In this document: in pieces, positions 1,163-23,493 of the stretch
Numbering within the stretch: the first letter of the stretch is position 1
Layout of the letters: each line of letters opens with the position of its first letter
DNA from: Candidatus Moraniibacteriota bacterium
GTDB taxonomy: Bacteria; Patescibacteriota; Minisyncoccia; JAHIHE01; JAGLIN01
Length of the DNA stretch: 27,834 bases
Direction of reading: 5' to 3'
Assembly: GCA_030641185.1 (NCBI GenBank)
Contig: DAOWHY010000016.1
Location: 1-27,834, forward strand
Translations under genes and position numbers: made by a program
Notes under the pieces: generated by a model
The model's input: the letters and a program-made list of their open reading frames with translations, nothing else
The model's database searches: none
What the model was told of the DNA's origin: nothing

Positions 1163-1262
1163 GGTAACAAAGTCATTGGCAGTAGAAATAGTCACAAGTC
1201 ATATGTCATAAGCTTATGACATATGACTAATAACTTATCTTACCGCCAATGACCTTGTTGCC
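1163..1262. repeat. Palindromic element (family F) of about 100 bp with a perfect 32-bp core palindrome
   Basis: The outer arms ggtaacaaagtcattggc and gccaatgaccttgttgcc are inverted repeats. The core agtcatatgtcataagcttatgacatatgact (1197-1228) is a perfect palindrome centred on AAGCTT. Confidence 0.75.
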
Positions 1263-1486
1263 TGTGACCGGTTTATATCTGTGGATAACTTTTTTGTATT
1301 ATTTTTTAAAAATGATAAAATAGAAAACAGGAGAGTGATAACAATGAGACTGATAAAAGATGTATTTGAGTTTTTCGGAGGAGTTATTAAACTTTTCGAA
1401 AGACCACGAACTGGCGCTGTATAACTTTGTTTTTTAAAAGTTTTCAGCGCTTTTATTTTTTTGCATTGAAAAAAATCAATATCCAT
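1235..1486 (-). CDS. Doubtful hypothetical membrane ORF (83 aa)
   Basis: Track ORF with one hydrophobic stretch (FISLIVITLLFSILSFL). It has no Shine-Dalgarno sequence, and its C-terminus is a translation of palindromic element F. Confidence 0.2.
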   Translation of the reverse strand: MDIDFFQCKKIKALKTFKKQSYTAPVRGLSKSLITPPKNSNTSFISLIVITLLFSILSFLKNNTKKLSTDINRSQATRSLAVR

Positions 1487-1533
1487 TTACTGTCTGCTAT
1501 TGTCTATTTACTTTTTTACAATCAGCCCATTTT

Positions 1534-1572
1534 AAAATCCCCTTAACCCCCTTTTTTCAAAGGGGGAATTTT
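1534..1572. repeat. GC-rich mini-palindrome (family E copy 1), positioned as terminator of the DUF4012 gene
   Basis: aaaatccccttaacccccttttttcaaagggggaatttt contains the stem cccccttt/aaaggggg. It lies 13 nt past the stop at 1585. Related copies are at 8628-8664 and 12281-12319. Confidence 0.6.
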
Positions 1573-1584
1573 AATATTCAATAT

Positions 1585-3822
1585 TTAATATCCAATATTT
1601 TCATTCGTAAACACAATCCCATAAACCCTATCAACATCCAAATCACTATCAACAACCATCTCATTTGAATTTCCGAATAATAAATTTTCCGAATTCCAAA
1701 TAACATTCCATTCCTGCGGCAATTTTATTGATCCTGAAAATTCAACATCAGAACTGCCGGGCTGTTTTTGAACTAAAACGCTATATTTATCAGCCGGCTT
1801 TGTGAAATCAGTGAAATTAATTTTATAAGGAAGTTTATATTTGTAAAAAACTTCCACTGTTTCTCCCGGACTTACATAAACCCAGTTTCCAAAAACGGTT
1901 TTTCCGGATTCTTCAAAAATCTGAGTTCCGCTATCAGTATCTATTTTGATAGTATCTTCAATTTTTTTAACATCAGGATCAATTTTGAAATCGCTGTAAT
2001 CAACAGGGGGTTCATAATCCTGCCAGGTATGCCCTCTCGCTTCCAACAAAACACTTCCCAATGGCACAAGTACTCTCATATAATCACAGTTAACGCGATT
2101 ATACCAATCATAATCACTTTCTCCGCCAGTGTGTTTTCTGATAATCCTAACCGTGTCTATTACAGAGCCATCGTTTGAAACTTCTGAATTGTGGATAATT
2201 TTTTCGTCTATGACAGCATCTGTTTTATAGCCGTTTATATTGCTATGCGCCACACTTAGATAATCGCCGCCGGAATCTAAGACTTGTCCTCCCCATCCCC
2301 TTTTAATTATTACATCATTTATTTCTGAATCTCTATGATAAAAAAGGATATGTTTTTCTTTAAAACTTTCTTCCATTATGCCGATAATATCTAAATATCT
2401 TTGCGCTTTTTTTTCAGAGTTTAAATCTTCAGTGTCAAACAACTCATCCATTATTTTGGGAGCAAGATCGGCTAAAATTTGTTTTGGTTTATTTCCTTCC
2501 TTGTCATATAATTCCTCAACTTGCAGCTGCGTCTCAGTAAGAAAATTATTTTTATCAATAACAATATTATATTCTGACATCTCAATCGGCCCGGTAACTT
2601 CCAGCATTTTTTCAAGTACCTTTGGTGTTATGGCTATAACACCGTCAACTGTCGGCCCGCCGGTTTTTTCATAAAATAACGCCACCTTTTTCGCGCTTGT
2701 CGGAAAATCAACAAACCAATTAGCGTCATGCATGCTCCATGCGTCGCTAATTTTTTGAATCGGAATTGGAGGAACTATTTTTTCCGTCAACTGTCCGTCT
2801 GGGTTGAATATCCCATCAATAAATAAGTTTTTTATCTTGCCGTCTTCTATATCAAGAATTCCATAACTGCCGACGAAACCTCCCGTCGCTCTCATTTCAC
2901 TGCTGTTCTGAAAAAGAAGCAGATATTCTTGCGGGCGTTCACTTCCAAATATTCTAGCTATAGCCGGAAAATCGTTTGATAAATTATTGAAATTTTTAGA
3001 AATTGCCGGCAGCTGACTTTTTGCCATTTCCATTTTTTCGCGCAAATCTTCCGGAATGTAACTTATGTTTACTTCTTCTATATTTTTTTGCGCGTTGTTT
3101 AAATTAAAAGCTATATTGTTTATATCTGTTTGAAAATCAAGGACAGAATTTAGAGAAAATCCGTCTTTGTCTAAACGCGTAATTTTATCCATTAGTCTTG
3201 AAATATTTTTTCCAACCAAAGATATGTTTTCTCCAGCTTCTGCTAAATTCTCGGCTGTGGAAATGGGAGTGTCTATTGGAATATTATTTAAAACAGATGC
3301 TATTCCAAAACCAAACTCATTTATCATTTCTTTTACATTAGAAAAATTTGTTGTCGCCAAATCAAAATTTTCAACACTGTTTTCAAAATCAGAATCAACT
3401 GCCGATCGTCCCGCCGACTTCAAATAATCATATGCCTGAGTTCCGACTCCGAGAACTTTGCCTTTTTGTTCAATGCTTTTTTGAATAAAAGATAAAGAAA
3501 AAATTATTGCTGGAATAAAAAGGATTATAAAAATAAAGAACGCGAAAGATTTTTTTAATTTTAAATTAAAAACTGGAAACGCTTTTGAAGATTTTATTTT
3601 TTTATAAAAGCTGTCTTGCTTAATTTGCTTAGTTTGTAATTCAATCTTTGGTTTAAGATTCTCTTTTCTGACAATCTCATAAACTATTTTATTTTTTTTA
3701 TTATCTATATCTTCTTGTCTTTTTTTTTCACCGGCAAAACAGCGTAAATCAATAACGCCTTTCATTTTTTGATCTCCTCTTTGATAAAGAAGCTTTGATT
3801 TTTTATTTGGAATAATGTCCAT
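1585..3822 (-). CDS. DUF4012 domain membrane-anchored protein (745 aa)
   Basis: There is an N-terminal TM segment (FAFFIFIILFIPAIIFSLSFI). The motif YLLLFQNSSEMRATGGFVGSYGILDIEDGKI matches the hallmark NxxExRxTGGFxGSYG core of DUF4012. Confidence 0.8.
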   Translation of the reverse strand: MDIIPNKKSKLLYQRGDQKMKGVIDLRCFAGEKKRQEDIDNKKNKIVYEIVRKENLKPKIELQTKQIKQDSFYKKIKSSKAFPVFNLKLKKSFAFFIFIILFIPAIIFSLSFIQKSIEQKGKVLGVGTQAYDYLKSAGRSAVDSDFENSVENFDLATTNFSNVKEMINEFGFGIASVLNNIPIDTPISTAENLAEAGENISLVGKNISRLMDKITRLDKDGFSLNSVLDFQTDINNIAFNLNNAQKNIEEVNISYIPEDLREKMEMAKSQLPAISKNFNNLSNDFPAIARIFGSERPQEYLLLFQNSSEMRATGGFVGSYGILDIEDGKIKNLFIDGIFNPDGQLTEKIVPPIPIQKISDAWSMHDANWFVDFPTSAKKVALFYEKTGGPTVDGVIAITPKVLEKMLEVTGPIEMSEYNIVIDKNNFLTETQLQVEELYDKEGNKPKQILADLAPKIMDELFDTEDLNSEKKAQRYLDIIGIMEESFKEKHILFYHRDSEINDVIIKRGWGGQVLDSGGDYLSVAHSNINGYKTDAVIDEKIIHNSEVSNDGSVIDTVRIIRKHTGGESDYDWYNRVNCDYMRVLVPLGSVLLEARGHTWQDYEPPVDYSDFKIDPDVKKIEDTIKIDTDSGTQIFEESGKTVFGNWVYVSPGETVEVFYKYKLPYKINFTDFTKPADKYSVLVQKQPGSSDVEFSGSIKLPQEWNVIWNSENLLFGNSNEMVVDSDLDVDRVYGIVFTNENIGY

Positions 3823-3919
3823 GATTAAAATATATTTTAGTGAATAACAATAATTTTAGTTGACTTTTTTTGTTGCTATGATAGGATTTATATAAAAGAA
3901 AATCTGGAGGGAAATAAAA

Positions 3920-4099
3920 ATGATAGACAGAATAATAAGTATAATTATTTTATTAAGTCTTTTGTGGATCATTTTGGTCCTAAATAGAAATAATAAAAAA
4001 TTAGACAAAATGTCTGCAGAAACGAAGAACAGACAAGAAATGACCCGCGAACAAGTAGAAAAAGAAATGGACGAACTAAACGAAATAAATGAACAATAA
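3920..4099 (+). CDS. Small membrane-anchored protein (59 aa, below the track cutoff)
   Basis: A GGAGGG Shine-Dalgarno sequence lies 8 nt upstream of the ATG. The translation is MIDRIISIIILLSLLWIILVLNRNNKKLDKMSAETKNRQEMTREQVEKEMDELNEINEQ. An intrinsic terminator follows directly. Confidence 0.55.
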   Translation: MIDRIISIIILLSLLWIILVLNRNNKKLDKMSAETKNRQEMTREQVEKEMDELNEINEQ

Positions 4100-4102
4100 T
4101 GT

Positions 4103-4127
4103 AAGCTGGCAACAGCTTATTTTTTTT
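4103..4127 (+). terminator. Intrinsic terminator between convergent genes
   Basis: aagctg-gcaa-cagctt is followed by attttttt. Confidence 0.6.
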
Positions 4128-4145
4128 ATTTTAAAATTGAAGCCC

Positions 4146-5297
4146 TTACTCCAAAATAATATTCAATATCTTTCCATAAATCTCCATCGTCTCTCTCCCC
4201 ATCCTCTCCCAGCTATATTTTCTAATCTGCCTAAATCCTTTTTCTCTCAATTCATTATACAACTTTTTATCAGTTAGAACCAATTTCATTTTCTCAGCCA
4301 TTTCTTCTGGATTGTTTGGATTGAAATATATTGCCGCGTCGCCTAACACTTCAGGCAAACTGGTTTTATTTGAGGAGACAACCGGAGTTCCACAGGCCAT
4401 AGCTTCAAGCCCGATAAGTCCGAAGCCTTCATAAAAAGAAGGTATAACAAAAATTTCCGCGGCATTATAAAACAACGGCAGCTCTTCTTGTTTTATAAAT
4501 CCAGTTCTGATTATTTTTTTTTCTAGTCCTAATTTTTCCCATGTTTTTCTTACTTCCGGATAGTAAGGATCTTCTTTGCCACCTAACACGAGCTGGTAAT
4601 TTAATTTATATTTATTTTTCAGGACACCAAAAGCTTTAACCAGTCCGACTAAATTTTTATGATTTCTCCATACGCCAGTGTAAAAAATAAACGGTTTTGT
4701 TATATTATATTTTTTTTTAATTTCAGTGATTTTTTGATTATTGTTAATTATTTTAAACTGACTATCAGCTCCCTCATAAATTACCTTAATTTTATTTTCC
4801 TTGATTTTAAAATACTTAACAATATCACTTTTTGTATTTTCAGAAACTGCTATTACTTTTGACGCTTTCTTAACTGATGAAAAAAATACCGTTCTAAATC
4901 CGATCTTTCTTATAACAGATTTCATTTTATGTCCGGGGAAGAAATATGGAGTGACATCATGAATGGTAACTATTGATTTTTTAAAATACAGAACCGGTGA
5001 ATTAAAATGCGTAAAATGCATTAAATCCAAATTTTCTTTATATAACTCAATTGGAAATAAAATCTGTTCTTTCCATCCATACCATTTTGCGGAAACTTTT
5101 ATTTTTCTTATTCTTTCATTCGGCAATTCAAAATTATCATACTCTTCGGGCAACAAAAAAATGACATAGTTATTTTCTTTGTCTAATTCAAAAATATATT
5201 TGAGCAAATGACGGATATAATTTCCAATCCCCGTCTGCGCATACCCATACATCCGCGCATCAATGCCGATTTTATATTTTTTGGATTTAGTTGACAT
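4146..5297 (-). CDS. Glycosyltransferase family 4 (GT4 no. 1)
   Basis: The C-terminal motif [40 protein letters not shown] is the GT4 EX7E region. The start is moved to MSTKSKKYKIGIDAR (ATG at 5297) because the 18-codon upstream extension looks non-coding. Confidence 0.85.
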   Translation of the reverse strand: MSTKSKKYKIGIDARMYGYAQTGIGNYIRHLLKYIFELDKENNYVIFLLPEEYDNFELPNERIRKIKVSAKWYGWKEQILFPIELYKENLDLMHFTHFNSPVLYFKKSIVTIHDVTPYFFPGHKMKSVIRKIGFRTVFFSSVKKASKVIAVSENTKSDIVKYFKIKENKIKVIYEGADSQFKIINNNQKITEIKKKYNITKPFIFYTGVWRNHKNLVGLVKAFGVLKNKYKLNYQLVLGGKEDPYYPEVRKTWEKLGLEKKIIRTGFIKQEELPLFYNAAEIFVIPSFYEGFGLIGLEAMACGTPVVSSNKTSLPEVLGDAAIYFNPNNPEEMAEKMKLVLTDKKLYNELREKGFRQIRKYSWERMGRETMEIYGKILNIILE

Positions 5298-5331
5298 AGT
5301 ATGAATTATGTTTATAATTTTGTTGGAGGAA

Positions 5332-5550: not shown

Positions 5551-5579
5551 ATAATTATAGCTGAAAAGCTATTTTTTTC

Positions 5580-5608: not shown

Positions 5609-5628
5609 TTTTATTATGGAGAGATATA

Positions 5629-6531: not shown

Positions 6532-7680
6532 TTCCAAAATAAAATCCAGTGTTTCTCTTGCGCACTTGTGCCAGGAGAATTTTTTTGTCTGTTCAAATCC
6601 TTTTTTAATCAAAGTATCTTTCAATTGATCATCATTTAAAACCGTTTCCATGGCTCTATAAAGCTCGTCTAAATTATAAGGATTGATCATAATAGCCGCA
6701 TCCCCGACCGCTTCCGGTAAAGATGAAAAGTTTGAGGTTATCACGGGGGTTCCACAAGCCATTGCTTCAAGCGGAGGAAAACCAAAACCTTCATAAAAAG
6801 AAGGGTAAACAAAAAGTTCAGCCTGGTTGTATAAGATTGATTTGTCTTCATCATCAATAAATCCCGTAAAAATTATATCATTTTTTACTGGCGAATTTTT
6901 TACTGTTTTAAAAATATCCCTGTAAAGCCAGCCTTTAGATCCAGCAATAACTAATTTATAGTCTTCTGCAGGCGACATTCGCGAATGTCGCCTTCGTTTA
7001 AATATTTCAAAAGCTTCAACTAATCCAATTATATTTTTGCGCGGCTCAAGTGTTCCTAAATACAAAATATATTTTTCCGGCAAATTGTATTTCTTTCTGA
7101 TTTTCTTAATTTTTGATTCTTGATTTGTAATTCGTAATTCTTGATCTATCCCTGAATAAATCACTTTTATTTTTTCAGGGTTAATATTATATAATCCGAC
7201 CAGATCATTTTTCGTTGATTCTGAAACAGCTATTATTTTGTCTGTCTTACGCGCCTGTTTTTTGGGATTCATTGAAAAATGCCAGTAATTTTTGCTGGCA
7301 GAATAAAATTCCGGATATTTTTCAAAACTAAGATCATGAAAAGTCATCACGCTTTTGCATTTTTTTGACACTGACGATAGGAATATATGCGGTGAAAAAA
7401 ACACATCGACTTCTTTCAGTAGCTTATCTATTTTGGGATAATTAAAAAAATATAAAGAAGCATCTAAAAATCTATTTGGAATTCTGTATTGCCTAAGTTC
7501 AACATTTGGAAATTTTAACCAGTCATAATCAAGTTCAATTTTTTTATATCCATTGTAAAAAAGCTTGAACTTGATGCTCTTGTCCAAGCTAAGCATATTT
7601 GCGAGAAGATTGACTGTATATTCTTCAACGCCGGTTTTCATCCCCCGTGCCAGCATTCTAATATCAATTCCGATAATCAT
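6529..7680 (-). CDS. Glycosyltransferase family 4 (GT4 no. 2)
   Basis: [40 protein letters not shown] is present. The protein is a paralog of GT4 no. 1 along its whole length. Confidence 0.85.
6971..6992. repeat. Perfect 22-bp GC-rich palindrome inside the GT4 no. 2 coding sequence
   Basis: ggcgacattcg/cgaatgtcgcc encodes RRHSRMSP at a position where GT4 no. 1 is several residues shorter. Confidence 0.8.
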
Positions 7681-7703
7681 AATGATATTTATTTAAATAC
7701 CTC

Positions 7704-7829
7704 TTGTCGTTGCGAGAAGCCCGAGCGAGCGTAGCGAACGAAAAGGCGACGAAGCAATCCCGTGATTAAATTCTTTGCGCGTAGTTACGGGATTGCTTCG
7801 TCGCTCTGCGGAGCTCCCCGCAATGACAA
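7704..7829. mobile_element. Family A palindromic element, gene-less copy A1 (inverted relative to the others)
   Basis: The sequence is ttgtcgttgcgagaagcccgagcgagcgtagcgaacg...gacgaagcaatcccgt-[loop]-acgggattgcttcgtc...ccccgcaatgacaa. It fills the spacer between the Wzz-like stop and the GT4 no. 2 start. Confidence 0.85.
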
Positions 7830-7830
7830 A

Positions 7831-8451
7831 CTAAGACAATGAAAAATACCTTCTTAAAAAAACAACAAAAACTCCTAACGCCATTCCTGAAATTAATCCA
7901 ATAATCAAATTCAAAATTGCGTCTGGCCTGCTTTCAACTATTACTGGATTTTCACTACTGACAAGAAAAGATATTTCTTGCTCGCTGGATTCTTTTAATT
8001 TTTCAACTTTGGCGTTTATTATTTCTGTGGTAGCCGTTGAAATTTTTTTTGCCTCTTCTGTCGCGCTACTTTTAAATTTTACTTCCACATATTGCGGAGA
8101 CATTTTTTTAGCGATAAATTTTTTCGTGTAGCTTTTTATATTTTTAAATTCTGAATCAACTTGTGCTCTTCTATAAATCGCGTTTACCGTTTCTGGGCTT
8201 TTTAGCCATTGTTCAATGGAATTTGCCATTATTTCGCTACTCTGGAGGGCGTAATAACCATCGTATTTAAAATCGTCAGTTGTTTGCGTTTTGTCTTTAG
8301 CTATTGTTAAAGACAAAGATGTTTCATATTCAATCGGCTGCGCGACCGAAAACACAAAAGCGGACACGGCTGTAATGATGCTGATAACTATAATTAGTTT
8401 AGAATTTTTTCTGATGATTTTTAGATATTCTTTTAGTTCCATATAATTCAT
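7831..8451 (-). CDS. Wzz/YveK-like polysaccharide co-polymerase (chain-length determinant)
   Basis: The protein has TM helices near both ends (IIVISIITAVSAFVFSV and LIIGLISGMALGVFVVFL) flanking a soluble domain. LKEYLKIIRKNSKLI is a Wzz-type N-terminus. The start is moved to MNYMELKEY (8451) so that it no longer overlaps the upstream gene. Confidence 0.6.
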   Translation of the reverse strand: MNYMELKEYLKIIRKNSKLIIVISIITAVSAFVFSVAQPIEYETSLSLTIAKDKTQTTDDFKYDGYYALQSSEIMANSIEQWLKSPETVNAIYRRAQVDSEFKNIKSYTKKFIAKKMSPQYVEVKFKSSATEEAKKISTATTEIINAKVEKLKESSEQEISFLVSSENPVIVESRPDAILNLIIGLISGMALGVFVVFLRRYFSLS

Positions 8452-9574: not shown

Positions 9575-9589
9575 TTTGAGTATTTATTA

Positions 9590-9618
9590 TTGACAGGAAA
9601 TAAATTATATGCTACAGT
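9590..9618 (+). promoter_or_regulatory. Sigma-70-like promoter with extended -10
   Basis: The sequence reads TTGACA-N17 (ending TGC)-TACAGT. Confidence 0.5.
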
Positions 9619-9654
9619 TTTCATGCTTACGAATATATATCGGAGGTGAAAATA

Positions 9655-9834
9655 GTGGAGATTAGCGAAAATATATCAAAAATTGTTTACGCAATTTTTA
9701 TGTTGATAATTCTTGCGATAGCAAATTTTTGGCCTGACCCAAAAACACAGAATTTTGCAATTGCAGCAATAGCGATTATAAGCATGACTTTAATCGCTGT
9801 GGTAAAAATCAAGAAAGACAAAAAAGAGTCTTAG
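9655..9834 (+). CDS. Small two-TM membrane protein (about 59 aa)
   Basis: The track ORF starts at 9646. A GTG at 9655 is better placed, 6 nt after GGAGGTG. A promoter lies upstream and a terminator follows directly. Confidence 0.5.
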   Translation: MEISENISKIVYAIFMLIILAIANFWPDPKTQNFAIAAIAIISMTLIAVVKIKKDKKES

Positions 9835-9866
9835 AGGTGTTCCTATCGGAGCTACCTCTTTTTTTA
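9833..9866 (+). terminator. Intrinsic terminator
   Basis: agaggt-(15 nt)-acctct is followed by T7. Confidence 0.65.
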
Positions 9867-9892
9867 TTAACAAGGGTTAATTTGATATTATT

Positions 9893-10333
9893 TCAAAATA
9901 AACTTTCACTCTTCTCTCTTAAATCTAACTCCCTATTCACCATCTCATCCGCTAATTTATTTTTCTCTCTCGGAATATGAATAAATTTCACAGAATCAAA
10001 ATCAAGCGTTAAATTCCAGACTATAATAAAAAGCTTTTGCATTCCTTCATCTTTTATTTTGTATTCATGGTTCAATTGTTTAACAACAAGCTCGCTATCA
10101 AGATGACACTCAAGATTTTTATCCTTTATTTTTTGCGCTTTAAAAATCCCCTTCGCTTTCTGCAACGCTAAAATCAGCGCTTCATATTCGGCTTGATTGT
10201 TTGTTGTTTCGCCGAGATATTTTGAGGTTTTCAAAATAACCTCGTCTTTATCGTTTTTGATGACAACCCCGCCCGCGGCTGGACCTGGATTCCCGCGAGA
10301 ACCACCGTCGGTGTAAATAATTAGTTTGGACAT
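9893..10333 (-). CDS. rnhA: Ribonuclease HI
   Basis: MSKLIIYTDGGSRGNPGPAAGGVVI...NNQAEYEALILAL...IPREKNKLADEMVN matches RNase H. The track start at 10426 is rejected because codons 1-31 translate repeat A2. Confidence 0.85.
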   Translation of the reverse strand: MSKLIIYTDGGSRGNPGPAAGGVVIKNDKDEVILKTSKYLGETTNNQAEYEALILALQKAKGIFKAQKIKDKNLECHLDSELVVKQLNHEYKIKDEGMQKLFIIVWNLTLDFDSVKFIHIPREKNKLADEMVNRELDLREKSESLF

Positions 10334-10357
10334 AAATGTTGTTGATATATAAATTAA

Positions 10358-10494
10358 TGTCATTGCGAGAAGTGAAATTATCCGCAGGATAATTGAATGA
10401 CGAAGCAATCCCGTAACTACGCGCAAAGAATTTAATTCCGGGATTGCTTCGTCATTCCGCTTCGCTACGCTTAACTCCGTTCCTCACAATGAAA
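10358..10494. mobile_element. Family A palindromic element, gene-less copy A2
   Basis: The sequence is tgtcattgcgagaagtg...gacgaagcaatcccgtaactacgcgcaaagaatttaattccgggattgcttcgtc...cctcacaatgaaa. It overlaps the last 14 codons and the stop codon of the solute-binding protein gene. Confidence 0.85.
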
Positions 10495-11891
10495 GATAAA
10501 TTCCCAATCTTTCCAACTGCCTCATCAACTTTCGCCTCCCAATTTTCTCTATCCAAACATATCTCATCAATCATATCAATTAGAATTCTATCAATTTTAT
10601 TGTCAAATTTATTATAGCTAATTGCGGTTTCAGCTTGCGATGCAAAAGCGCTTATTTTATTATTTAGATCAATTTGTTCAGATATTAAATCTTTTCTCGC
10701 CGCGGCTTTGTTAGTTAAATTTAAATATATTTCTGAGTTTTCTTTTTGGGCGGCAAAACTCAAAAAGCTCCAAGCTATTTGAGAGCAATTTATTTCATCA
10801 GATAATGCGGCAGGTTTAGTTAGGCAATTATTATTATTTGAAACAACTGGCGTCCAGACATTAGAAAAATTTATAATCGCTGAATTTTCCAATTGCGGCA
10901 TTTTAGAAACACCATAATTAAGATCTGGATTTAGGGCTAATAAATTTTTTATTTGATAACTATATCCAATAAACATCGCTGTCTTGTTGTTAGCAAATGA
11001 CTTGATCGCTTCTTCCTGTTTACAATCCCAAACATATTTTTCTTTCTCTGAATCCGAAAATTCTGTGTAAAATATTATTGCTCTCTCGCCTGGAATTCTT
11101 TTTTCAATTCCGTTCATCGTATTAATTTCTATCTCTTTGTTTAGATCAATATTTTTATCAAAATCTATTATTCTCGCTCCGCCTTGCATCATAAGCAACG
11201 ACAAAATATCAGAAGAACTATTGATATTTTTTCCGCATCCGAAAGACGCTCCTGCTTGAATAATATTATTGTCCTTATCAAGCATTGTTAACTTGCTGGC
11301 AGTTTTTTTAAACTCTTCCCATGTTCGCGGTGGATTTTCTATTTCCATTTTGGCAAGTAAATCTTTGTTGTAGAAAAGCGCTAAAGAATCGGAATACATT
11401 GGCGATCCATACAGTTCGTTTTCATAAATTAAATCTCTAATCGTTTCAGCGGGAAATATTTCTAATAATTCTTCATATTTAATCAACTTATATTCTTCCG
11501 CGTAATTATCATCTCCCGTAAGCGGTTCAAGCTGGTTAAGATATTTTTCCAACCAATTATTATTAATCATCATAATATTCGGCTCGTTATTTTTTTCTTT
11601 TGCTTTTGCCAAATCTTCCTCGTAAGAGTTAAGATCTTTTTTAGTATAATTTATGGAAACATTTACTTCCTGCCAACCAAAATTATATATCTCGCTTTCA
11701 AATTTTTCTATTATCTCTTCCCAATCATCAGAATTATCCCACAATCCCCAAAATTCCAAAGTTACTTCAATTGGTTTTCTGTCTTCTTTAACTATTTCTT
11801 TTTCATCAATATTAGAATAATCCATCACGAAAACATATCCGATTGATACAAGAATTATTATTAAAAATGTAATTATTATTGTTTTAATCAT
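10452..11891 (-). CDS. Extracellular solute-binding protein (ABC-type, family 1-like) with signal anchor
   Basis: The N-terminal TM segment is followed by TLEFWGLWDNSDDWEEIIEKFE...SLALFYNKDLL...PPRTWEEFKK, which is typical of sugar-type SBPs. The C-terminal LSFIVRNGVKRSEAE is repeat-derived. Confidence 0.7.
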   Translation of the reverse strand: MIKTIIITFLIIILVSIGYVFVMDYSNIDEKEIVKEDRKPIEVTLEFWGLWDNSDDWEEIIEKFESEIYNFGWQEVNVSINYTKKDLNSYEEDLAKAKEKNNEPNIMMINNNWLEKYLNQLEPLTGDDNYAEEYKLIKYEELLEIFPAETIRDLIYENELYGSPMYSDSLALFYNKDLLAKMEIENPPRTWEEFKKTASKLTMLDKDNNIIQAGASFGCGKNINSSSDILSLLMMQGGARIIDFDKNIDLNKEIEINTMNGIEKRIPGERAIIFYTEFSDSEKEKYVWDCKQEEAIKSFANNKTAMFIGYSYQIKNLLALNPDLNYGVSKMPQLENSAIINFSNVWTPVVSNNNNCLTKPAALSDEINCSQIAWSFLSFAAQKENSEIYLNLTNKAAARKDLISEQIDLNNKISAFASQAETAISYNKFDNKIDRILIDMIDEICLDRENWEAKVDEAVGKIGNLSFIVRNGVKRSEAE

Positions 11892-11915: not shown

Positions 11916-12077
11916 TTGTCATTCCCGCACTGAAATAAATTCAGCATAAACTCCGGCGGGAATCCGGTAAATTTCAATAAACAATAATTATCGTAATAAT
12001 TTTGCAAGCGAAACTAACTGGATCCCAGACATTTTTTTCTAAAGCTTCGCTTTTAGAAAAAAATTCTGGGATGACAA
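11916..12077. repeat. Family B palindromic element, copy B1
   Basis: The sequence is ttgtcattcccgc...gcgggaatcc...ggatcccagacatttttttctaaagcttcgcttttagaaaaaaattctgggatgacaa. It aligns along its length with 16292-16449. Confidence 0.8.
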
Positions 12078-12927: not shown

Positions 12928-12983
12928 AGCTTTAGACTTATTTGTAAACTCTCACAAAAATACACAGTTCTCACTGTGCCTAT

Positions 12984-13012
12984 ATTCTAACATTATTTAA
13001 TTCTTAAATCAA
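12984..13012 (-). promoter_or_regulatory. Sigma-70-like promoter for the dksA-like/lspA pair
   Basis: The minus strand reads TTGATT-N17 (ending TGT)-TAGAAT, about 55 nt upstream of the ATG. Confidence 0.5.
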
Positions 13013-13108
13013 TATTTCTGTCAATGCCTACTTAATAAAACGGAATTTATCCTTTAGGATTTCAAAATCACACAACAAAAATAATCCTAACTACAAAATT
13101 TAATCAAA

Positions 13109-13607
13109 TTAAAAAGACCAACTAGATCCAAATATATTATTTAATGACCGTCGGTCTTTTTTAATCTTTATCTTAGATTATTCTCCCTTTAACAGGGTGA
13201 ATTAAGGGGAGGTGACCCCTTGAGTTATATTTAAGCGCTAAAATTAATGCTCAAATATAACCCAAGAGATACATAATCATTTTAAAACAAAGATCATTTT
13301 AAGTTTCTTCTAAGTTTAAAAGAAACTTTTAATCTCTCACCATTATCGCGTAATTCTTAGATACTTTTTTTATTTTTATTTTTTGTTTATCTTTTATTTT
13401 TATTTTTTAGATAAATTTTTAAAAAAAACGCTTCAAACAGTTAAGAGAAGATTAAATACAAAATAAACTGAAGCCATTTCGCTTCGAATTTCTCTTTATA
13501 TGCAATCTACTTCCAATGTTCATTTTATTTATATGTTATAAATAAAACTATGAGAGATTTGTTTTTTAAAAAGAACATTCCGTTTTTTATTTTGTATTCT
13601 CACCTCA
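13109..13607 (-). ncRNA. Candidate non-coding transcript of about 0.5 kb, function unknown
   Basis: The region is bounded by the promoter at 13615-13643 and a stem plus T5 at 13109-13158. The longest ATG ORF I could find is 22 codons and has no Shine-Dalgarno sequence. The 3' third holds several hairpins whose mismatches become G-U pairs only on the minus strand. Confidence 0.3.
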
Positions 13608-13614
13608 TGTTCAA

Positions 13615-13643
13615 AGTATAGCATTAAATTAAACTTTAGTCAA
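13615..13643 (-). promoter_or_regulatory. Near-consensus orphan promoter
   Basis: The minus strand reads TTGACT-N17 (ending TGC)-TATACT. No protein gene lies downstream before the next promoter. Confidence 0.55.
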
Positions 13644-13708
13644 GTATTTAAGCAACATCGTCTTAATCCGCTAAAATAAGCTAAAGCTAATCTTTCAAAA
13701 AGTCGATT

Positions 13709-13740
13709 TTAAAAGCAGTCCCATATAATCAGGACTGCTT
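13709..13740 (-). terminator. Intrinsic terminator of rpsA
   Basis: The minus strand reads agcagtcc-tgattatatg-ggactgct followed by TTTT. It lies about 35 nt past the stop. Confidence 0.7.
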
Positions 13741-13772
13741 AATATTTACTTTATCAACAACTTATCCACAGT

Positions 13773-15044: not shown

Positions 15045-15145
15045 ATTTGATTGTTCTCCTTTCTTACTAAGATTTTCGGTCTTGCAAATAAAAACAGCTA
15101 TTTTCCTAAAAACAACTGAATTTTCCCAAAACCGATAGTAATGGA

Positions 15146-15174
15146 AGTATAGTTTATATTTTTTATATTGTCAA
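15146..15174 (-). promoter_or_regulatory. Sigma-70-like promoter of rpsA
   Basis: The minus strand reads TTGACA-N17-TATACT. Confidence 0.6.
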
Positions 15175-15281
15175 TGTTCATGTTCGCGGGAGTGTAGAAC
15201 GAGCCGCAGCGTAGTTTTACTATCCTCATCATTGGCTCCATTGTCCCCGCAGGGCTGTGAAGCCTTTTGTAATTTCAAAAA

Positions 15282-15326
15282 CTTTTTCAATCCCACCTTT
15301 TTGTAAAAGATGAAGTTGAAAAAAAG
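15282..15326. repeat. 45-nt direct repeat R1, copy a
   Basis: ctttttcaatcccacctttttgtaaaagatgaagttgaaaaaaag is nearly identical to 15811-15853, differing by one substitution and one indel. Confidence 0.8.
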
Positions 15327-15356
15327 AAAAAGGGGTTGAAAAAAAATTGGCTACTG

Positions 15357-15605
15357 CTACTGTATATTACCTTTTCCGAGTTCTCTCAGAAAGACAATCA
15401 TCCATACTATTGCTCCTAACAGCATGAAAACTCCAATTTCTGTTTCACTCATTGCCGCTCCTACGACATCGCAATTGGTGCTCCATGAACTTATTGACCT
15501 TATAAATATAAGGACAAGAAATCCAGAGGACGCTCCTGCAATGCCTACTGTTCCTAGAACAATAACGGCGGCTCCTATCCCTGCTATGTCTATATTTATT
15601 TTCAT
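15357..15605 (-). CDS. Small Gly/Ala-rich integral membrane protein (82 aa)
   Basis: An AAAGAGGTGA Shine-Dalgarno sequence lies 6 nt before the ATG. The translation MKINIDIAGIGAAVIVLGTVGIAGASSGFLVLIF...GVFMLLGAIVWMIVFL shows glycine-zipper-like helices. Confidence 0.6.
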   Translation of the reverse strand: MKINIDIAGIGAAVIVLGTVGIAGASSGFLVLIFIRSISSWSTNCDVVGAAMSETEIGVFMLLGAIVWMIVFLRELGKGNIQ

Positions 15606-15810
15606 AATATTTCACCTCTTTTGACCTGACTTTCAGATCGACCCTTATTTTTATGGAACCGAGGTGTGCAACATTGTTCATCGTCATAATAATTTTTATT
15701 CAGAACAACAAATAAATTACTCGAAATTAATAACCTATTTGTCGTCCTGAATATATTTTTTCTTCCCCTTTTTCAAAGTGCAATTTCGCTTCTAATATTT
15801 TTATCAGAAG

Positions 15811-15853
15811 CTTTTTCAATCCCACCTTCTTGTAAAGATGAAGTTGAAAAAAG
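15811..15853. repeat. 45-nt direct repeat R1, copy b
   Basis: The sequence is ctttttcaatcccaccttcttgtaaagatgaagttgaaaaaag. Confidence 0.8.
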
Positions 15854-15917
15854 AAAGAAAAGAAAAATTTTAGTTGTCTTGTCTCTGTGAACAAAGACAA
15901 GGTTATTTTTTACCCAA

Positions 15918-15965
15918 TTAATTATTCTTGGGTGCAATGAGGTCGTCTCCATCAGGATAATCCAT
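15918..15965 (-). CDS. Possible 15-codon acidic micro-ORF
   Basis: The same AAAGAGGTGA-N6-ATG initiation region as the 82-aa gene is present. The peptide is MDYPDGDDLIAPKNN. It is too short to judge by composition. Confidence 0.25.
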   Translation of the reverse strand: MDYPDGDDLIAPKNN

Positions 15966-16124
15966 TTCTTATCACCTCTTTTACTTTTAAATTTTATTTA
16001 TTTCAAACAGTAAACTAACAAGAAAATTTTTCCGATCAGTTTACTAACTAAAACTAACTAAAAATAATTTTTCTTTTCTTTTTCAAAGTGCGTTCCTTTG
16101 TGATTTCACATCCAGTTTATTTTC

Positions 16125-16163
16125 AATGTGCGGAAGGTTAGAATAATCTAACCTCCGCACATT
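16125..16163. other. Strong GC-containing hairpin
   Basis: aatgtgcggaaggttag-aataat-ctaacctccgcacatt pairs 16 bp with one bulged A. No T-run follows on either strand. Confidence 0.7.
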
Positions 16164-16291
16164 ACTCTATAAAACATAGAGATTGATGCAAATGAGTTTG
16201 GGCATTATTGGTTTAACGGCATTAATATAATTTCTACCGCAACCTCAACTCTCTCCTCGTTTACATCAATCTATATATTTTGTTCTTCCCC

Positions 16292-16449
16292 GTCATTCCC
16301 GCAAAATTTTCTGTCATTCCCGCGGAGGCGGGAATCCAGTAAGTCTCAATGAATAATATTTTTTCGTATAATTTTGATAAAGTGAAACAAACTGGATCCC
16401 AGATATTTTTTCTGAAGCTATCGCTTCAAAAAAAATTCTGGGATGACAA
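16292..16449. repeat. Family B palindromic element, copy B2
   Basis: The sequence is gtcattcccgc...gtcattcccgcggaggcgggaatcc...ggatcccagatattttttctgaagctatcgcttcaaaaaaaattctgggatgacaa. Confidence 0.8.
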
Positions 16450-16461
16450 TGACAACTAAAC

Positions 16462-16517
16462 AAAAAAACAGTTAAAATTATTTCCTTCAAAGAGAGATAG
16501 TTCTAACTGTTTTTTTA
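16462..16517. terminator. Possible bidirectional terminator after yraN
   Basis: A7-cagtta...taactg-T7 is present, but the loop is long (about 29 nt). Confidence 0.35.
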
Positions 16518-16640
16518 TATAAAGCTTATTTCTGAAATAAACTGTGATAATTCTCTCCTCAAAGAATTAATTTATTCAATTTTCAAATTACTCTAAATTC
16601 TTCTCACAACAAGATAGTGTATCATATATTTTAGATTCTG

Positions 16641-19275: not shown

Positions 19276-19303
19276 AAATTATTGATTTTTAATAATCTAA
19301 ATT

Positions 19304-19453
19304 AAACCTGTCATTGCGAGGAATGGAACGGAGCGATAGCGTAGTGGAATGACGAAGCAATCCCGTGACTATACACAAAGAATTTAATTACGGGATTGCT
19401 TCGTCGCCTTCTCACTCGCTACGCTCGCTCGGGCTTCTCGCAATGACAGGTTT
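19304..19453. mobile_element. Family A palindromic element, gene-less copy A3 (most complete)
   Basis: The sequence is aaacctgtcattgcgaggaatggaacggagcgatagcgtag...gacgaagcaatcccgtgactatacacaaagaatttaattacgggattgcttcgtcgccttctcactcgctacgctcgctcgggcttctcgcaatgacaggttt. Confidence 0.9.
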
Positions 19454-20420: not shown

Positions 20421-20465
20421 AAAGATTAAATTGTTAAATTGTATTATTATTCTAATTTGTTGCCT

Positions 20466-20601
20466 TTTGTCATCTCGAAGGAGTCGCAACGACCGAGAGA
20501 TCTCTTAAATCACACTATCGCATTTTACATTATTTAAGAGATTCCTCAATCGCGAGAGTTTATGCTGAATTTATTTCAGTGCTCATTTCGGAATGACAAA
20601 A
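20466..20601. repeat. Palindromic element D carrying a fragment shared with B1
   Basis: The sequence is ttttgtcatctcgaagg...gagagatctcttaaat...atttaagagattcctc...agtttatgctgaatttatttcagtgc...ggaatgacaaaa. Confidence 0.65.
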
Positions 20602-20680
20602 TAGATTGGAAAGCAGTGTATTTTCAGTGTATAGTCTTTTTGCCAATAAATCAAGAACATAGAGTTGAACAGAAAATTTA

Positions 20681-20711
20681 TAAAAAGAGAGGTGAAAAAA
20701 CCTCTCTTTTT
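20681..20711 (-). terminator. Intrinsic (bidirectional) terminator after the pilin-like array
   Basis: agagagg-(8 nt)-cctctct is flanked by an A-run and a T-run. It lies about 25 nt past the stop at 20735. Confidence 0.7.
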
Positions 20712-20734
20712 ATATTTAAAATATGTTCACTGTC

Positions 20735-21094
20735 TTATGCTGTTAGAATCTGAGTAACAACAATAACCATAGCGTAAGCAAGACCAGCGACAACCATACC
20801 TATTATACCGTAAGAGATAGTCTTTTTAGCACTAGCAACAGCATCTTCGTTTCCTCCGGCAGTAAGATATTGAACACCTCCCCAGATAATTACTAGAGTA
20901 GCAATAATAGCAATGAAACCGAGAATGTAATTGGTAATGTTCATAACTGCTGCTTCTATATCATCTGGAACATTATCTGGCGGATTTTCATATCCCCATC
21001 CCTCTGATGGATCAGCGCTGGCAACGGAAGCAGAAAGAGCAAAAGCGTAAACGAGCAGTGAAGAGATTGACAACTTCTTCATTAAATTTTTCAT
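20735..21094 (-). CDS. TrbC/VirB2-like small membrane protein, paralog 1
   Basis: The signal peptide ends in SVASA. It is followed by NITNYILGF, TM1, WGGVQYLTAGGNEDAVASAKKT and TM2. The ATG at 21094 lies 6 nt after AGGGGGTG. Confidence 0.7.
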   Translation of the reverse strand: MKNLMKKLSISSLLVYAFALSASVASADPSEGWGYENPPDNVPDDIEAAVMNITNYILGFIAIIATLVIIWGGVQYLTAGGNEDAVASAKKTISYGIIGMVVAGLAYAMVIVVTQILTA

Positions 21095-21163
21095 TTTTTT
21101 CACCCCCTTTCAAATTATTAATTTATTTTTTCTATTTAATTTTGTAGAGTTTTATTATCCTTA

Positions 21164-21577
21164 TTATACAGGTGGAGGTGGAGGTGGGGCAGGAGCTAAT
21201 ACAATAGTTACAATAACATTTACTAACGCGTAAGCTATTCCAGCTATCACCAAACCTATTAAAGCATAGGTAACCACTCGTTTTCCTGTTGTAGCTCTAG
21301 TTTCATCTCCAGCCGATCCTATATACATCACTCCTCCCCAAATTACCATCAAAACCGCAAGCATTGCCACAAATCCGAGAATCCAGTTCGTCAGATTTAG
21401 AACAGCATTATCAAAACTTTCAGGAACACCCGTTGGCGGAGTGCCCATCGCAAAACCCTCAGCAAAAGCATTATTTATAAACAAAAACATTGACGACAAC
21501 ACGGCAAGCACACCAACGATCGCGCTTTTAATGGCGGTTTCTTTTTGATTAATTATTTCCATTGTTTTTTGTGCCAT
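21164..21577 (-). CDS. TrbC/VirB2-like small membrane protein, paralog 2 (poly-Pro tail)
   Basis: The signal peptide ends in NNAFA. It is followed by NLTNWILGF, TM1, WGGVMYIGSAGDETRATTGKR, TM2 and APAPPPPPPV. Confidence 0.7.
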   Translation of the reverse strand: MAQKTMEIINQKETAIKSAIVGVLAVLSSMFLFINNAFAEGFAMGTPPTGVPESFDNAVLNLTNWILGFVAMLAVLMVIWGGVMYIGSAGDETRATTGKRVVTYALIGLVIAGIAYALVNVIVTIVLAPAPPPPPPV

Positions 21578-21620
21578 ACTTTTTTGTTAATTTTTAATTA
21601 ATAAAATTTTAAAAAAATTC

Positions 21621-21983
21621 TTAAAGTATTTCGACAACTATAACATTTACAATAGCGTAAGAAACTCCTGCTATAAATACCCCTATCAACGCGTAATAAA
21701 TTATTTTCTTTGACAAATCCGCTTTTTGAACATCCCCGGAAGAAGCGATATAATTCAAACCGCCCCAAACTAATGCCAGCACCGAAACTGCCAAAGTAAA
21801 TTCAAGAAGCCAGTTGGTCAGATTTAATATTCCTACATCAAGATCTTCTATTAAGCTACCGCCTGGATTATCTGGAAGCACCCATCCGTCAGCAGTGGCA
21901 ACGCGAGTTATTATTGTTGACATTGCCAAACAAACAGCAATCGCGCAAAAATTTAAATACTTATTATTCTTTATTATCTTCAT
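21621..21983 (-). CDS. TrbC/VirB2-like small membrane protein, paralog 3
   Basis: The signal peptide ends in RVATA. It is followed by NLTNWLLEF, TM1, WGGLNYIASSGDVQKADLSKK and TM2. Confidence 0.7.
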   Translation of the reverse strand: MKIIKNNKYLNFCAIAVCLAMSTIITRVATADGWVLPDNPGGSLIEDLDVGILNLTNWLLEFTLAVSVLALVWGGLNYIASSGDVQKADLSKKIIYYALIGVFIAGVSYAIVNVIVVEIL

Positions 21984-22017
21984 TACCTATATTATTACAT
22001 TTTTTATTTACGCAGTC

Positions 22018-22094
22018 AAATTTGTCATAGTGAGCTTGTCAAACTATGATAGATTTAGCGCGCTTGCCACCCTTCAACAAGCTCAGGATGACAG
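22018..22094. repeat. Family C palindromic element, copy C2
   Basis: aaatttgtcatagtgagcttgtcaaactatgatagatttagcgcgcttgccacccttcaacaagctcaggatgacag lies between pilin-like paralogs 4 and 3. Confidence 0.8.
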
Positions 22095-22122
22095 TTCTTT
22101 TATATTTTGTTTTTTAACATTT

Positions 22123-22512
22123 CTAATGAAAAATCGTATCCAGAATTTTTATAATAGCAAAAGAAGTTCCGGCTACGAAAATTCCGAGCAGAGCATACTT
22201 GACAATTTTTTTGGCGTTTTCCGTTTTTTGCATATCTCCTGAAGAGGAAACATAATAAAGACCTCCATAAATTAACGCCACCACTGAAATTGCGACAGCA
22301 AGTTTCAGAAGTTCGCTAACCGCGGCATCTATCACATCCGGGATTAAACTATCTGGCACACCAGCAGGTAAACAGTTGACAGGATCGTTAAACATATTCT
22401 TGCCGCCTTCATAATCACACTCTGCTCCAGTATAATTAACGAACAATAAAGAAGAAACTACAAAAATACTTAAAACAAATAATGTGGTTTTTTTTAAAGT
22501 TAAGCTTTTCAT
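22123..22512 (-). CDS. TrbC/VirB2-like small membrane protein, paralog 4 (most divergent, two Cys)
   Basis: A signal peptide is followed by a longer N-terminal region with C..C, then TM1, YGGLYYVSSSGDMQKTENAKK and TM2. Confidence 0.65.
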   Translation of the reverse strand: MKSLTLKKTTLFVLSIFVVSSLLFVNYTGAECDYEGGKNMFNDPVNCLPAGVPDSLIPDVIDAAVSELLKLAVAISVVALIYGGLYYVSSSGDMQKTENAKKIVKYALLGIFVAGTSFAIIKILDTIFH

Positions 22513-22603
22513 TTTAGTATCTTAATAGAATTTATTTTTTAGGATCTCAAAAAATGGCTTAAATAGGCAAAGTTTTATAAAAACCTTAAAGGGTAAATAG
22601 ACC

Positions 22604-22978
22604 TTAGACAGCTTTATTTTTGTAATCCTCAATCGCCTTATGTAAAGCATCAGCCGCCAAATTGGAACAGTGCATTTTCATAGGTGGAAGTCCTTCCAGA
22701 CTTTCTGCCACATCTTTGTTGTTAATTTTCATTGCTTCGTCTAAAGTTTTTCCCTTGGCCAAATCTGTGATCATTGAAGAAGTGGCAATTGCCGCCGCGC
22801 ATCCCAGCGTCTCAAATTTTATATCTTTAATTATGTTTTTTTTCTTGTCTGCTTTAATATAAACTTTCATTATATCTCCGCAAACAGGATTTCCCACTTT
22901 TCCAATTCCATCGGCTGATTTAATTTTACCATAATTATGAGGATTTGTAAAATGTTCTATTACTTTTTTAGTATACAT
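22604..22978 (-). CDS. iscU: IscU/NifU-like Fe-S cluster scaffold
   Basis: MYTKKVIEHFTNPHNYGKI...GNPVCGDIMKVYI...TLGCAAAIATSS...MHCSNLAADAL contains the three conserved Cys. The ATG at 22978 is preferred over the TTG at 22993. Confidence 0.85.
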   Translation of the reverse strand: MYTKKVIEHFTNPHNYGKIKSADGIGKVGNPVCGDIMKVYIKADKKKNIIKDIKFETLGCAAAIATSSMITDLAKGKTLDEAMKINNKDVAESLEGLPPMKMHCSNLAADALHKAIEDYKNKAV

Positions 22979-22996
22979 ATTTTTAATTTTCAATTT

Positions 22997-23493
22997 AAAC
23001 CTGTCATTGCGAGGAGCCTGAACGAACGCAGTGAGTGAGATGGCAACAAAGCAATCCCGAAACTACACGCAAGAATCAAATTATAAAGTTATTTTATTTA
23101 TTTTAAACCCTTAGCTTCCTCGATCAAGTCCTTTCATTCTGGATTCATTTTTTCAATAAATTCTATTTTCTTTTTTCTTGATCCCGCTTTTATTTGTTTT
23201 TCTCTGGTGATAGCTATTTTAATATCATTACATACTTCATAATAAACGATCGTGTCTATATTATATTTTGCGGTAAAACTGTTTTTATCAATTTTACTTT
23301 TATGTTGATATTCTCTTCTAAACAAATCGTTAGTTACTCCAACATATACCGTGGCGTGTCTTTTGTTAGTGGCTATATAAATATAATATTGCTTTTCTTT
23401 CATATCCTAAACAAAAGTTTTATTGGCTTAGATGCGGGATTGCTTCGTCGCCTTCTCACTTGCTATGCTCGTTCGGGCTCCTCGCAATGACAA
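22997..23493. mobile_element. Family A element carrying a GIY-YIG nuclease gene between inverted arms of about 60 nt
   Basis: The left arm is aaacctgtcattgcgaggagcctgaacgaacgcagtgagtgagatggcaacaaagcaatcccg. The right arm is gcgggattgcttcgtcgccttctcacttgctatgctcgttcgggctcctcgcaatgacaag. They are reverse complements with roughly ten mismatches. Confidence 0.75.
23134..23403 (-). CDS. GIY-YIG nuclease family protein (UPF0213/COG2827-like, 89 aa)
   Basis: YYIYIATNKRHATVYVGVTNDLFRREYQHKS...ITREKQIKAGSRKKKIEFI contains the GIY...YVG, R and E/K-rich tail hallmarks. Confidence 0.8.
   Translation of the reverse strand: MKEKQYYIYIATNKRHATVYVGVTNDLFRREYQHKSKIDKNSFTAKYNIDTIVYYEVCNDIKIAITREKQIKAGSRKKKIEFIEKMNPE

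Follow-up and report, generated by a model that had tools for sequence, protein, structure and literature searches.

Ssn nucleases and the motifs that they bind are the closest described counterpart of a set of intergenic hairpins in a 27,834-nucleotide (nt) stretch of DNA from Candidatus Moraniibacteriota bacterium (positions 1 to 27,834 of contig DAOWHY010000016.1, assembly GCA_030641185.1), here called the window. SsnA is a 94-residue single-domain GIY-YIG protein (cd10448) that binds the sequence NTS (CGTCATTCCCGCGMAVGCGGGAATCYRG), an oriented form of the repeat dRS3 (Chenal et al., Nat Commun 2025; PMC11893778). It acts on single-stranded DNA only, cutting a few bases upstream of the motif, and neither binds nor cuts RNA (PMC11893778). 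Cutting depends most on the three bases 5′ of the palindrome and binding most on the C 3′ of it; the loop can be replaced or extended, and changing the stem sequence while keeping its shape abolishes activity (PMC11893778). The motifs of the wider family, termed SRM, occur near 71% of ssnA homologues and on both sides in 42% (PMC11893778). In the meningococcus the Ssn system restricts transforming single strands, and the arrangement NTS-ssnA-NTS has been likened to an insertion sequence (IS), with a domesticated mobile element proposed as a hypothesis (PMC11893778).

The repeats themselves were catalogued in 2013 as repetitive extragenic palindromes (REPs) without a dedicated enzyme (Di Nocera et al., BMC Genomics 2013; PMC3733652) and were tied to Ssn only in 2025 (PMC11893778). 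These CGTC-tagged REPs, whose tag is often TGTC, have 8-9 bp stems nearly always opening with A-T, loops of 4-5 nt and a CCA-like tail, form mostly head-to-head dimers, and include dRS3 of Neisseria and RPE-4 and RPE-6 of Rickettsia (PMC3733652). A dedicated transposase seemed to be lacking, none being flanked by CGTC units (PMC3733652).

Four repeat families of the window, A to D, are in our judgement very likely head-to-head pairs of SRM (CGTC/TGTC-tagged REPs), with one copy of family A, A4, carrying the cognate Ssn nuclease gene. The system has already been described, and Ssn/SRM largely explains the observation made in an initial annotation of this DNA, that several palindromic repeat families share TGTCAT...ATGACA termini. 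New here are a motif variant that the published search string misses and the absence of elements A1, A3, B2 and D from related strains.

Architecture of the repeat pairs

The nine elements of families A to D are all head-to-head pairs between genes on the minus strand, and they lie within a few bases of where the initial annotation had placed them. Their units follow a common plan: an unpaired (T)GTC tag, a stem opening with A-T and T-A, a variable interior in which long inserts are tolerated, the return stem and C(C/T)N, with two units inverted so that the tags face outward. The TGTCAT...ATGACA ends arise because the two outward-facing tags are followed by the first stem pairs. All 12 intact units of the window have TGTC before the stem and C after it. 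Folded as single-stranded DNA, every element is far better than its shuffles (z -2.8 to -10.9), in line with the long imperfect hairpins that had been described, except that A4 is no simple palindrome and carries a gene.

Family A has four copies with the stem ATTGC/GCAAT. A1 (7705-7828; z -6.7) joins a left unit at 7705-7761, which opens TGTCGT with a G.T first pair, to a right unit at 7791-7828, and its loop orientation is inverted relative to A2 and A3. The right terminus of A2 (10358-10494; z -6.3) has decayed to ATGAAA. A3 is a 140-nt pair at 19309-19448 (z -10.9) within an insertion spanning 19279-19450, which also includes a 30-nt AT-rich linker (19279-19308) and GG. A4 (23002-23492) has its left A-type unit on the plus strand (23002-23058) and its right one on the minus strand (23438-23492), GTC tags outward, and its arms are split by 380 nt that hold the ssn open reading frame (ORF). 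The two copies of family B combine different units. B1 (11917-12076) consists of a left unit GTC-ATTCCCGC...GCGGGAAT-CC with a 27-nt loop insert and a right unit GTC-ATCCCAGA...TCTGGGAT-CC, and B2 (16312-16448; z -7.0) of a compact left unit TGTC-ATTCCCGC-GGAG-GCGGGAAT-CCA at 16312-16338 and a ATCCCAGA-type right unit at 16395-16448; B2 is preceded by a partial tag with stem (16291-16302) and followed by a further ATGACA (16449-16454). C1 (17330-17400; z -5.2) is a pair of short units with the common loop CGAGCTTGTCGAA, the stems ATAG/CTAT and ACCC/GGG and a GTGACA end. The second copy, C2 (22023-22093; z -2.8), is 88% identical and lies between two pilin paralogues. Element D (20468-20598) again pairs two different units, GTC-ATCTC...GAGAT-CTC on the left and GTC-ATTCC...GGAAT-CTC on the right.

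The window thus holds at least seven stem types, and the families had been taken to be unrelated. They share the unit plan, and a 32-nt loop module is common, at 94% identity, to B1 (11927-11958) and the right unit of D (20551-20582); the interiors of A units are likewise assembled from a small number of modules, recombined from copy to copy and from genome to genome. Families A-D are one superfamily by architecture, though they stay separate and do not collapse into one by alignment. The shared termini are present in most elements, all of which start with TGTCAT except A1 (TGTCGT) and end with ATGACA except A2 (ATGAAA) and C1 (GTGACA).

The terminal hexamer is enriched well beyond its background. 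Both strands together hold 31 copies of TGTCAT, whereas dinucleotide shuffles give 11.4 +/- 3.2 and fell short of 31 in all 100 cases; element ends account for 15 occurrences, and the other 16 are about background. On the plus strand, 10 of 15 TGTCAT and 9 of 16 ATGACA fall in the non-coding 28% of the window. Hairpins with a GTC tag, a 5-bp stem and a following C number 28 in the window where 11.7 are expected, and near ssn genes 453 where 143 are expected, 70% of the latter opening with AT. A search with GTCA and a 7-nt stem (37 matches against ~25 expected) was too noisy in AT-rich DNA. Assembly artefact or chance as the source of the elements was rejected on these shuffle statistics and on recurrence across genomes.

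Of the 11 spacers exceeding 100 nt in the 7.7-23.5 kb region, 9 contain an element, as the initial annotation had said of most; these include spacers of housekeeping operons (obg-lepA, nifU-gatA, glycosyltransferases); B2 sits only at the far end of a 1.6-kb spacer (15045-16640). Co-transcription of the elements within operons is plausible from their position. The two exceptions are 9575-9892 (318 nt), which has neither a repeat unit nor an ORF of at least 80 residues and, having almost no contig depth in related strains, is therefore strain-specific sequence, and 12928-13772 (845 nt), an AT-rich spacer upstream of the S1 gene made of low-complexity T/A runs without a hairpin unit. All four A copies lie 2-4 nt past the stop codon of the upstream gene or overlap it. 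The downstream start codon is 24-33 nt away at A1, A2 and A3, and at A4 the distance to nifU is 8-23 nt, depending on the start codon chosen. At A2 the repeat has entered the coding sequence: the last ~14 residues (SFIVRNGVKRSEAE) and the stop codon of the solute-binding-protein gene (10452-11891, minus strand) derive from its right arm. Once the units are recognized, they account for many unusual short ORFs and extended gene ends annotated in metagenome genomes of high A+T content.

The ssn gene and its relatives

The ORF inside A4 (23134-23403, minus strand, 89 codons) matches the GIY-YIG family PF01541 (E 1.1e-12) over residues 5-79 of 89. Judged by homology, its product is a single-domain GIY-YIG nuclease of the Ssn family (SsnA family, cd10448), with 46% identity to a 94-residue ORF of N. 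gonorrhoeae (E 3e-28, under the cut-off of E < 1e-10 applied in PMC11893778). The putative catalytic equivalents Tyr9, Tyr20 and Glu68 are invariant in a 15-sequence alignment and align with Y6, Y17 and E64 of the gonococcal ORF, which carries these residues as SsnA does and is probably the SsnA orthologue. No NCBIfam or PADLOC model matches the window protein, and its sole relative of solved structure, 1ZG2, is uncharacterised.

At codon 90 (23134-23136) the gene has an in-frame TGA instead of Trp, after which the frame stays open for 11 codons to 23098. Intact relatives have 93-101 residues, and these 11 codons correspond to the end of the 101-residue relatives. An 85%-identical homologue from other assemblies (locus L162) has TAG at the same single Trp codon (10270-10272), and in both genes the 11 codons past the nonsense codon remain in frame and conserved. 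For these two independent nonsense changes of one codon, recurrent inactivation, tolerated truncation and regulated read-through are all possible.

Just inside the left arm of A4, 24 nt (23062-23085) match the loops found in the short A copies (TAACTACGCGCAAAGAATTTAATT and variants). Further short copies appear in metagenome contigs, where 23058 and 23435 are separated by only 19-26 nt. It follows that the short A copies arose from the gene-carrying element by internal deletion.

The window Ssn has 719 detectable homologues, and a scan of species-representative genomes gave at least 591 ssn loci in Chloroflexota, Patescibacteria, Cyanobacteria, Bacteroidota, Clostridia, Nitrospirota, Omnitrophota and others, as well as in Alpha- and Gammaproteobacteria, one Rickettsiaceae genome among them. 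In the best 80 of the at least 591 loci the gene lies between inverted copies of GTCATTGCGAG...CGAAGCAATC(T/C)C. In 79 homologous loci from many phyla, plus-strand units cluster 0-100 nt upstream (42) and minus-strand units 0-100 nt downstream (51), with units on both sides in 42 of 79. A tblastn search of plasmid records with Ssn matched Sinorhizobium, Rhizobium, Shinella, Sphingobium, Novosphingobium, Azospirillum and Planktothrix, and also two Neisseria gonorrhoeae chromosomes filed as plasmids. The gonococcal homologue is flanked by CGTC-type units of its host with the stem ATTCCCGC (CGTCATTCCCGC-N4-GCGGGAATC); that of A. lipoferum lies between sufB and sufC with its own CGTC-type CGTCATCCCCGCGAAGGCGGGGATCCA pairs on both sides (stem ATCCCCGC); and that of S. 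meliloti is flanked by its own CGTC-type CGTCATCCTCGGGCTTGACCCGAGGATCCA and the inverse (stem ATCCTCGGG). Across these three loci, tag and architecture are constant and the stem varies by lineage.

Among 412 A-type units in the 1.09 Mb of fetched loci, conservation begins sharply with T57% G82% T83% C81% and ends at C80% after the stem. The dominant unit, GTC-ATTGC-GAG ... CGAA-GCAAT-C, has a 5-bp base stem, a modular loop of 20-45 nt, and conserved GAG and CGAA beside the stem. In 265 units located by anchors outside the stem, pairing at the five stem positions is 87-92%, and compensatory variants occur (ATCGC/GCGAT seven times, ATTAC/GTAAT seven times, ACTGC/GCAGT four times). The ends of this independently derived logo, GTC before and C after the stem, are the positions found critical in PMC11893778; together with the homology of the enzyme, this indicates that the window holds an Ssn/SRM system.

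The likeness to the published Ssn/SRM systems extends to the protein (one GIY-YIG domain, about 94-101 residues, identical catalytic residues), inverted motifs on both sides of the gene, GTC before and C after the stem, and hundreds of solo intergenic copies. At 26 of 28 positions the compact unit of B2 (16312-16338) agrees with the NTS consensus, and it fits dRS3 as well. In contrast, the window has a 5-bp base stem, a modular loop of 20-45 nt and at least seven stem types, some of them mixed within one pair; its gene has a premature stop; its host is an AT-rich cold-seep bacterium, probably of the Patescibacteria, which the main text of PMC11893778 does not name; and insertion differences are seen here at the strain level, whereas mobility was only hypothesized there.

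Like the CGTC-tagged REPs, the window units have the CGTC/TGTC tag, a stem that starts with A-T and T-A and a short tail rich in C; they too mostly form head-to-head dimers, which lie between co-directional genes and now and then overlap a gene end. However, only one unit, at 16313-16336 (8 bp, loop GGAG), fits the described 8-9 bp stem and 4-5 nt loop; A units have a 5-bp base stem, and the loops of all other window units measure 13-45 nt. An ssn gene flanked by units is found here and in Chenal et al. 2025, whereas PMC3733652 found no dedicated enzyme. Oriented tagged hairpins, inverted doublets as the likely mobile form, recognition of single-stranded DNA, and one enzyme gene between inverted units beside many gene-less copies also recall the REP/REPIN (REP doublets forming hairpins) systems with their REP-associated tyrosine transposases (RAYTs). 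They differ in that the tag is GTC and not GTAG and that the predicted enzyme is a hydrolytic GIY-YIG nuclease, for which no covalent intermediate is expected, and not an HUH tyrosine transposase. Insertion polymorphism between strains, and short gene-less copies left by internal deletion of an element that has inverted ends and carries a gene, are likewise features of miniature inverted-repeat transposable elements (MITEs), but there is no DDE transposase, the ends are themselves hairpins, and the parent A4 encodes a nuclease and no known transposase.

Strain differences and spread

Sequence near-identical to the window was found only in cold-seep and marine-sediment metagenome runs, and strains were compared through contigs from four or five cold-seep runs aligned on the window. 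Exactly at the units, word depth rises 10- to 1000-fold from ~10x, reaching hundreds or thousands, with a maximum of 18025x over B2; over B1 it is 400-2100x against a baseline of ~10-60x. Loose contig ends cluster at 19308/19309, 19448/19449, 23001/23002 and 23492/23493, so that TGTCAT and ATGACA mark the limits of what is repeated.

At A3 the related strains have a clean empty site: contigs from four runs pass directly from 19278 to 19451, the joint being ambiguous by 2 nt (TT), and the obg stop and lepA start codons are thus 4 nt apart. The window has 172 bases more at this site (30-nt linker, 140-nt pair, GG). There is no clear target-site duplication, the TT ambiguity at this one clean site being all that was seen. 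A1 is missing in related strains, with joints 7680 to 7832 and 7680 to 7836 that leave 11-16 nt from the stop to the next start, as are D (20442 to 20619 and 20423 to 20619) and, in one strain, B2 (16281 to 16459). At the A2 site, 10336-10545 is replaced in a related strain by 136 nt of different sequence. Contigs from two runs join 23492 to 22121 through 8 letters, and some strains therefore seem to have an A-type element where the window has C2, between the two pilin paralogues (22093-22123). In the closest relative among assembled genomes (Obg 82%, LepA 87% identical), obg lacks an element on both sides and another gene occupies the obg-lepA spacer; a metagenome scan with Obg found no same-species relative, and an exact-protein look-up of NifU gave no match. 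Insertion or loss on a short time scale is observed, by whichever enzyme.

The gene-carrying element occurs in other contexts as well. An ssn element 94% identical to A4 lies in a glycogen-metabolism context at locus L161, and one of 85% identity lies between mraZ and rsmH (L162-L164). In S. meliloti (L167, 1190-1320) a partial duplicate, comprising the 3′ end of ssn and the downstream unit, stands ~200 nt upstream of the intact gene, which suggests a past tandem or nested insertion. An AT-rich stretch of similar form, (R)(R)TTAATTTA..., follows ATGACA in A2, A3, L161 and L162, with a looser version at A4. This linker runs from the ATGACA end to the next start codon (19279-19308, 22979-23001 and 10334-10357 in the window; 677-706 in L161; 10399-10413 in L162) and is missing together with A3 at the one clean empty site. 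It may be a part of the element or a preferred target, both being compatible with that single site.

From the behavior of SsnA, the window Ssn would bind the folded unit on single-stranded DNA only, through the stem sequence and the following C, and would nick a few bases 5′ of the GTC tag. A nick 5′ of the tag on each strand predicts two cuts just outside the two ends of the pair. On this reading the pairs would behave as IS- or MITE-like selfish DNA, spreading through Ssn cleavage combined with replication and repair by the host. They may also, or alternatively, label DNA for single-strand restriction, as in Neisseria. We hypothesize that the repeats are mobilized by Ssn, either the window enzyme or an intact paralogue. 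Of the two suggestions made in the initial annotation, a common activity recognizing the ends is essentially right, given an Ssn family that binds the motif and the gene inside A4, although mobilization by that activity is hypothetical. To the question of repeat-gene-repeat mobility posed in PMC11893778, the window contributes a gene-carrying copy, deletion derivatives and a clean empty site in sister strains, along with insertions into tight operon junctions, one of them rewriting a gene's 3′ end.

Several points weigh against this reading. GIY-YIG nucleases form no covalent DNA intermediate, and cleavage alone therefore does not explain insertion. The activity of the window protein is predicted from its sequence only, and the premature stop at codon 90 removes a conserved W-x-D-L tail, so the enzyme may be inactive. 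SsnA is reported to depend on the sequence of its stem and not on the shape alone, yet at least seven stem types stand beside one ssn gene, itself flanked by A units; for B, C and D no cognate enzyme is visible. A3 provides the single clean empty site, flanks having diverged at the other strain differences, and the metagenome data are assembled contigs, not raw reads. Finally, the published SRM string, HGTCWYN(0-2)YYVSBRHN(0-5)WNVSBRGN(0-2)RNCYNB, has no match in the window and none within 300 nt of the gene in the 79 loci closest to the window Ssn. The string does match the Neisseria, Azospirillum and Sinorhizobium loci, and the unit at 16312-16339 fails it, by inspection, on one loop letter. 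An ATTGC-type unit pattern, in contrast, lies within 300 nt of the gene in 69 of the 79 loci, and this Ssn clade therefore uses a variant motif. The variant is widespread (Chloroflexota, Patescibacteria, Cyanobacteria, Bacteroidota and others), and because the published motif misses it, current repeat counts are underestimates. Each new motif-enzyme pair is also a candidate single-strand DNA cutter of different specificity for tool development.

The same units could instead serve the host as address labels for single-strand restriction that tune recombination and DNA uptake, their spread being a by-product. We regard this as a possible but rather unlikely account of the window. It draws on direct genetics in N. 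meningitidis (PMC11893778), on the appearance of the host as a small-genome bacterium of the Patescibacteria type with pilin paralogues beside the repeats, and on the near single-copy state of ssn: ~760 kb of related loci contain one further small GIY-YIG gene, which is non-Ssn and around which flanking units were looked for and none found. The truncation of the window gene speaks against it, as does the location of the elements in housekeeping operon spacers and not around particular gene classes; strain-variable insertions, one of which overwrites a gene's 3′ end, look parasitic. Host service and selfish spread are compatible with each other. A different mover, of the IS200/IS605 or RAYT type (HUH transposases) or of the IS110/Piv type, with Ssn as passenger or regulator, appears improbable. 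An IS110/Piv-type recombinase targets dRS3 in Neisseria, and we know of no strand-transfer chemistry for a GIY-YIG nuclease. Such a mover would fit the units of B, C and D, which have no cognate ssn in the window, and a broad transposase range has been proposed for these repeats (PMC3733652), although no transposase was found flanked by CGTC units (PMC3733652). No HUH or IS110 gene is present among the window ORFs, and the short A copies derive by deletion from the ssn-carrying element itself.

The other suggestion of the initial annotation, convergent selection for an RNA hairpin function, found no support, and we consider it highly improbable that the hairpins were independently selected as transcript stabilizers, processing sites or attenuators with ends recognized by a common RNA-binding factor. 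All elements fold strongly and lie between co-directional genes, where they would be transcribed, the A copies 24-33 nt upstream of start codons, and RNA roles have been argued for such repeats in general (PMC3733652). However, related strains do without A1, A3, B2 and D, with spacers of only 4-16 nt at A1 and A3; units flank ssn genes as inverted pairs across phyla; and SsnA has no RNA binding or cutting activity. In the stems, G.T cells (36) are not clearly in excess of A.C cells (28), and an Rfam scan of the whole window returned no relevant family, only a tRNA and two sub-threshold chance matches over family C.

Tentatively, then, we raise the possibility that the Ssn/SRM pairs are actively mobile and have as their one dedicated protein a hydrolytic GIY-YIG nuclease of about 100 residues that acts on single-stranded hairpins, A4 being the autonomous element and the short pairs its MITEs; we would not yet call this probable. 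If true, the mode of movement would be distinct from the 'peel and paste' transposition of HUH enzymes and from classical homing. The seven or more stem types would then imply either a relaxed specificity (GTC tag, A-T base pairs, 3′ C) or several paralogues in a small genome, and the AT-rich linker of ~25-30 nt brought in by A copies, close to the next start codon, might allow the gene that follows to be expressed again.

Family F and other features of the window

A further palindrome, family F (1162-1263; z -10.3), had been grouped with the repeats as being built from gtcat/atgac words. The words are indeed the same in this 102-nt near-perfect palindrome of GTCAT words, but it is a separate single-copy feature. 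As a member of the system it was rejected because the stem is followed by G and not C, depth is near baseline, and it is kept in related strains, between which the number of GTCATAT heptamers varies by one. F adjoins a tRNA gene (1034-1113, minus strand), and TTATCCACA, a perfect DnaA-box-like word, lies ~20 nt from it on the minus strand at about 1282-1290. Two segments at 737-810 and 885-958 have word depths 20-100x the baseline in cold-seep runs and are conserved or repeated.

The window has a G+C content of 33%, and its genes lie nearly all on the minus strand. They encode a DUF4012 protein, three GT4 glycosyltransferases, RNase HI, a solute-binding protein, LspA, a DksA-type zinc finger protein, ribosomal protein S1, UPF0102, LepA, Obg, four tandem type IV secretion system (T4SS)-pilin paralogues, NifU, GatA and a spermidine-synthase-like protein. 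Gene content, together with the names of the sources of the closest homologues of one gene (Parcubacteria, Patescibacteria), suggests a bacterium of the Patescibacteria type. The pilin paralogues (PF18895; 20735-22512) have a conserved 59-nt segment in common. A terminator-like hairpin (AAAAAGAGAGGT-GAAAAA-ACCTCTCTTTTT) at 20683-20712 lies 3′ of the first pilin gene and shares its spacer with element D.

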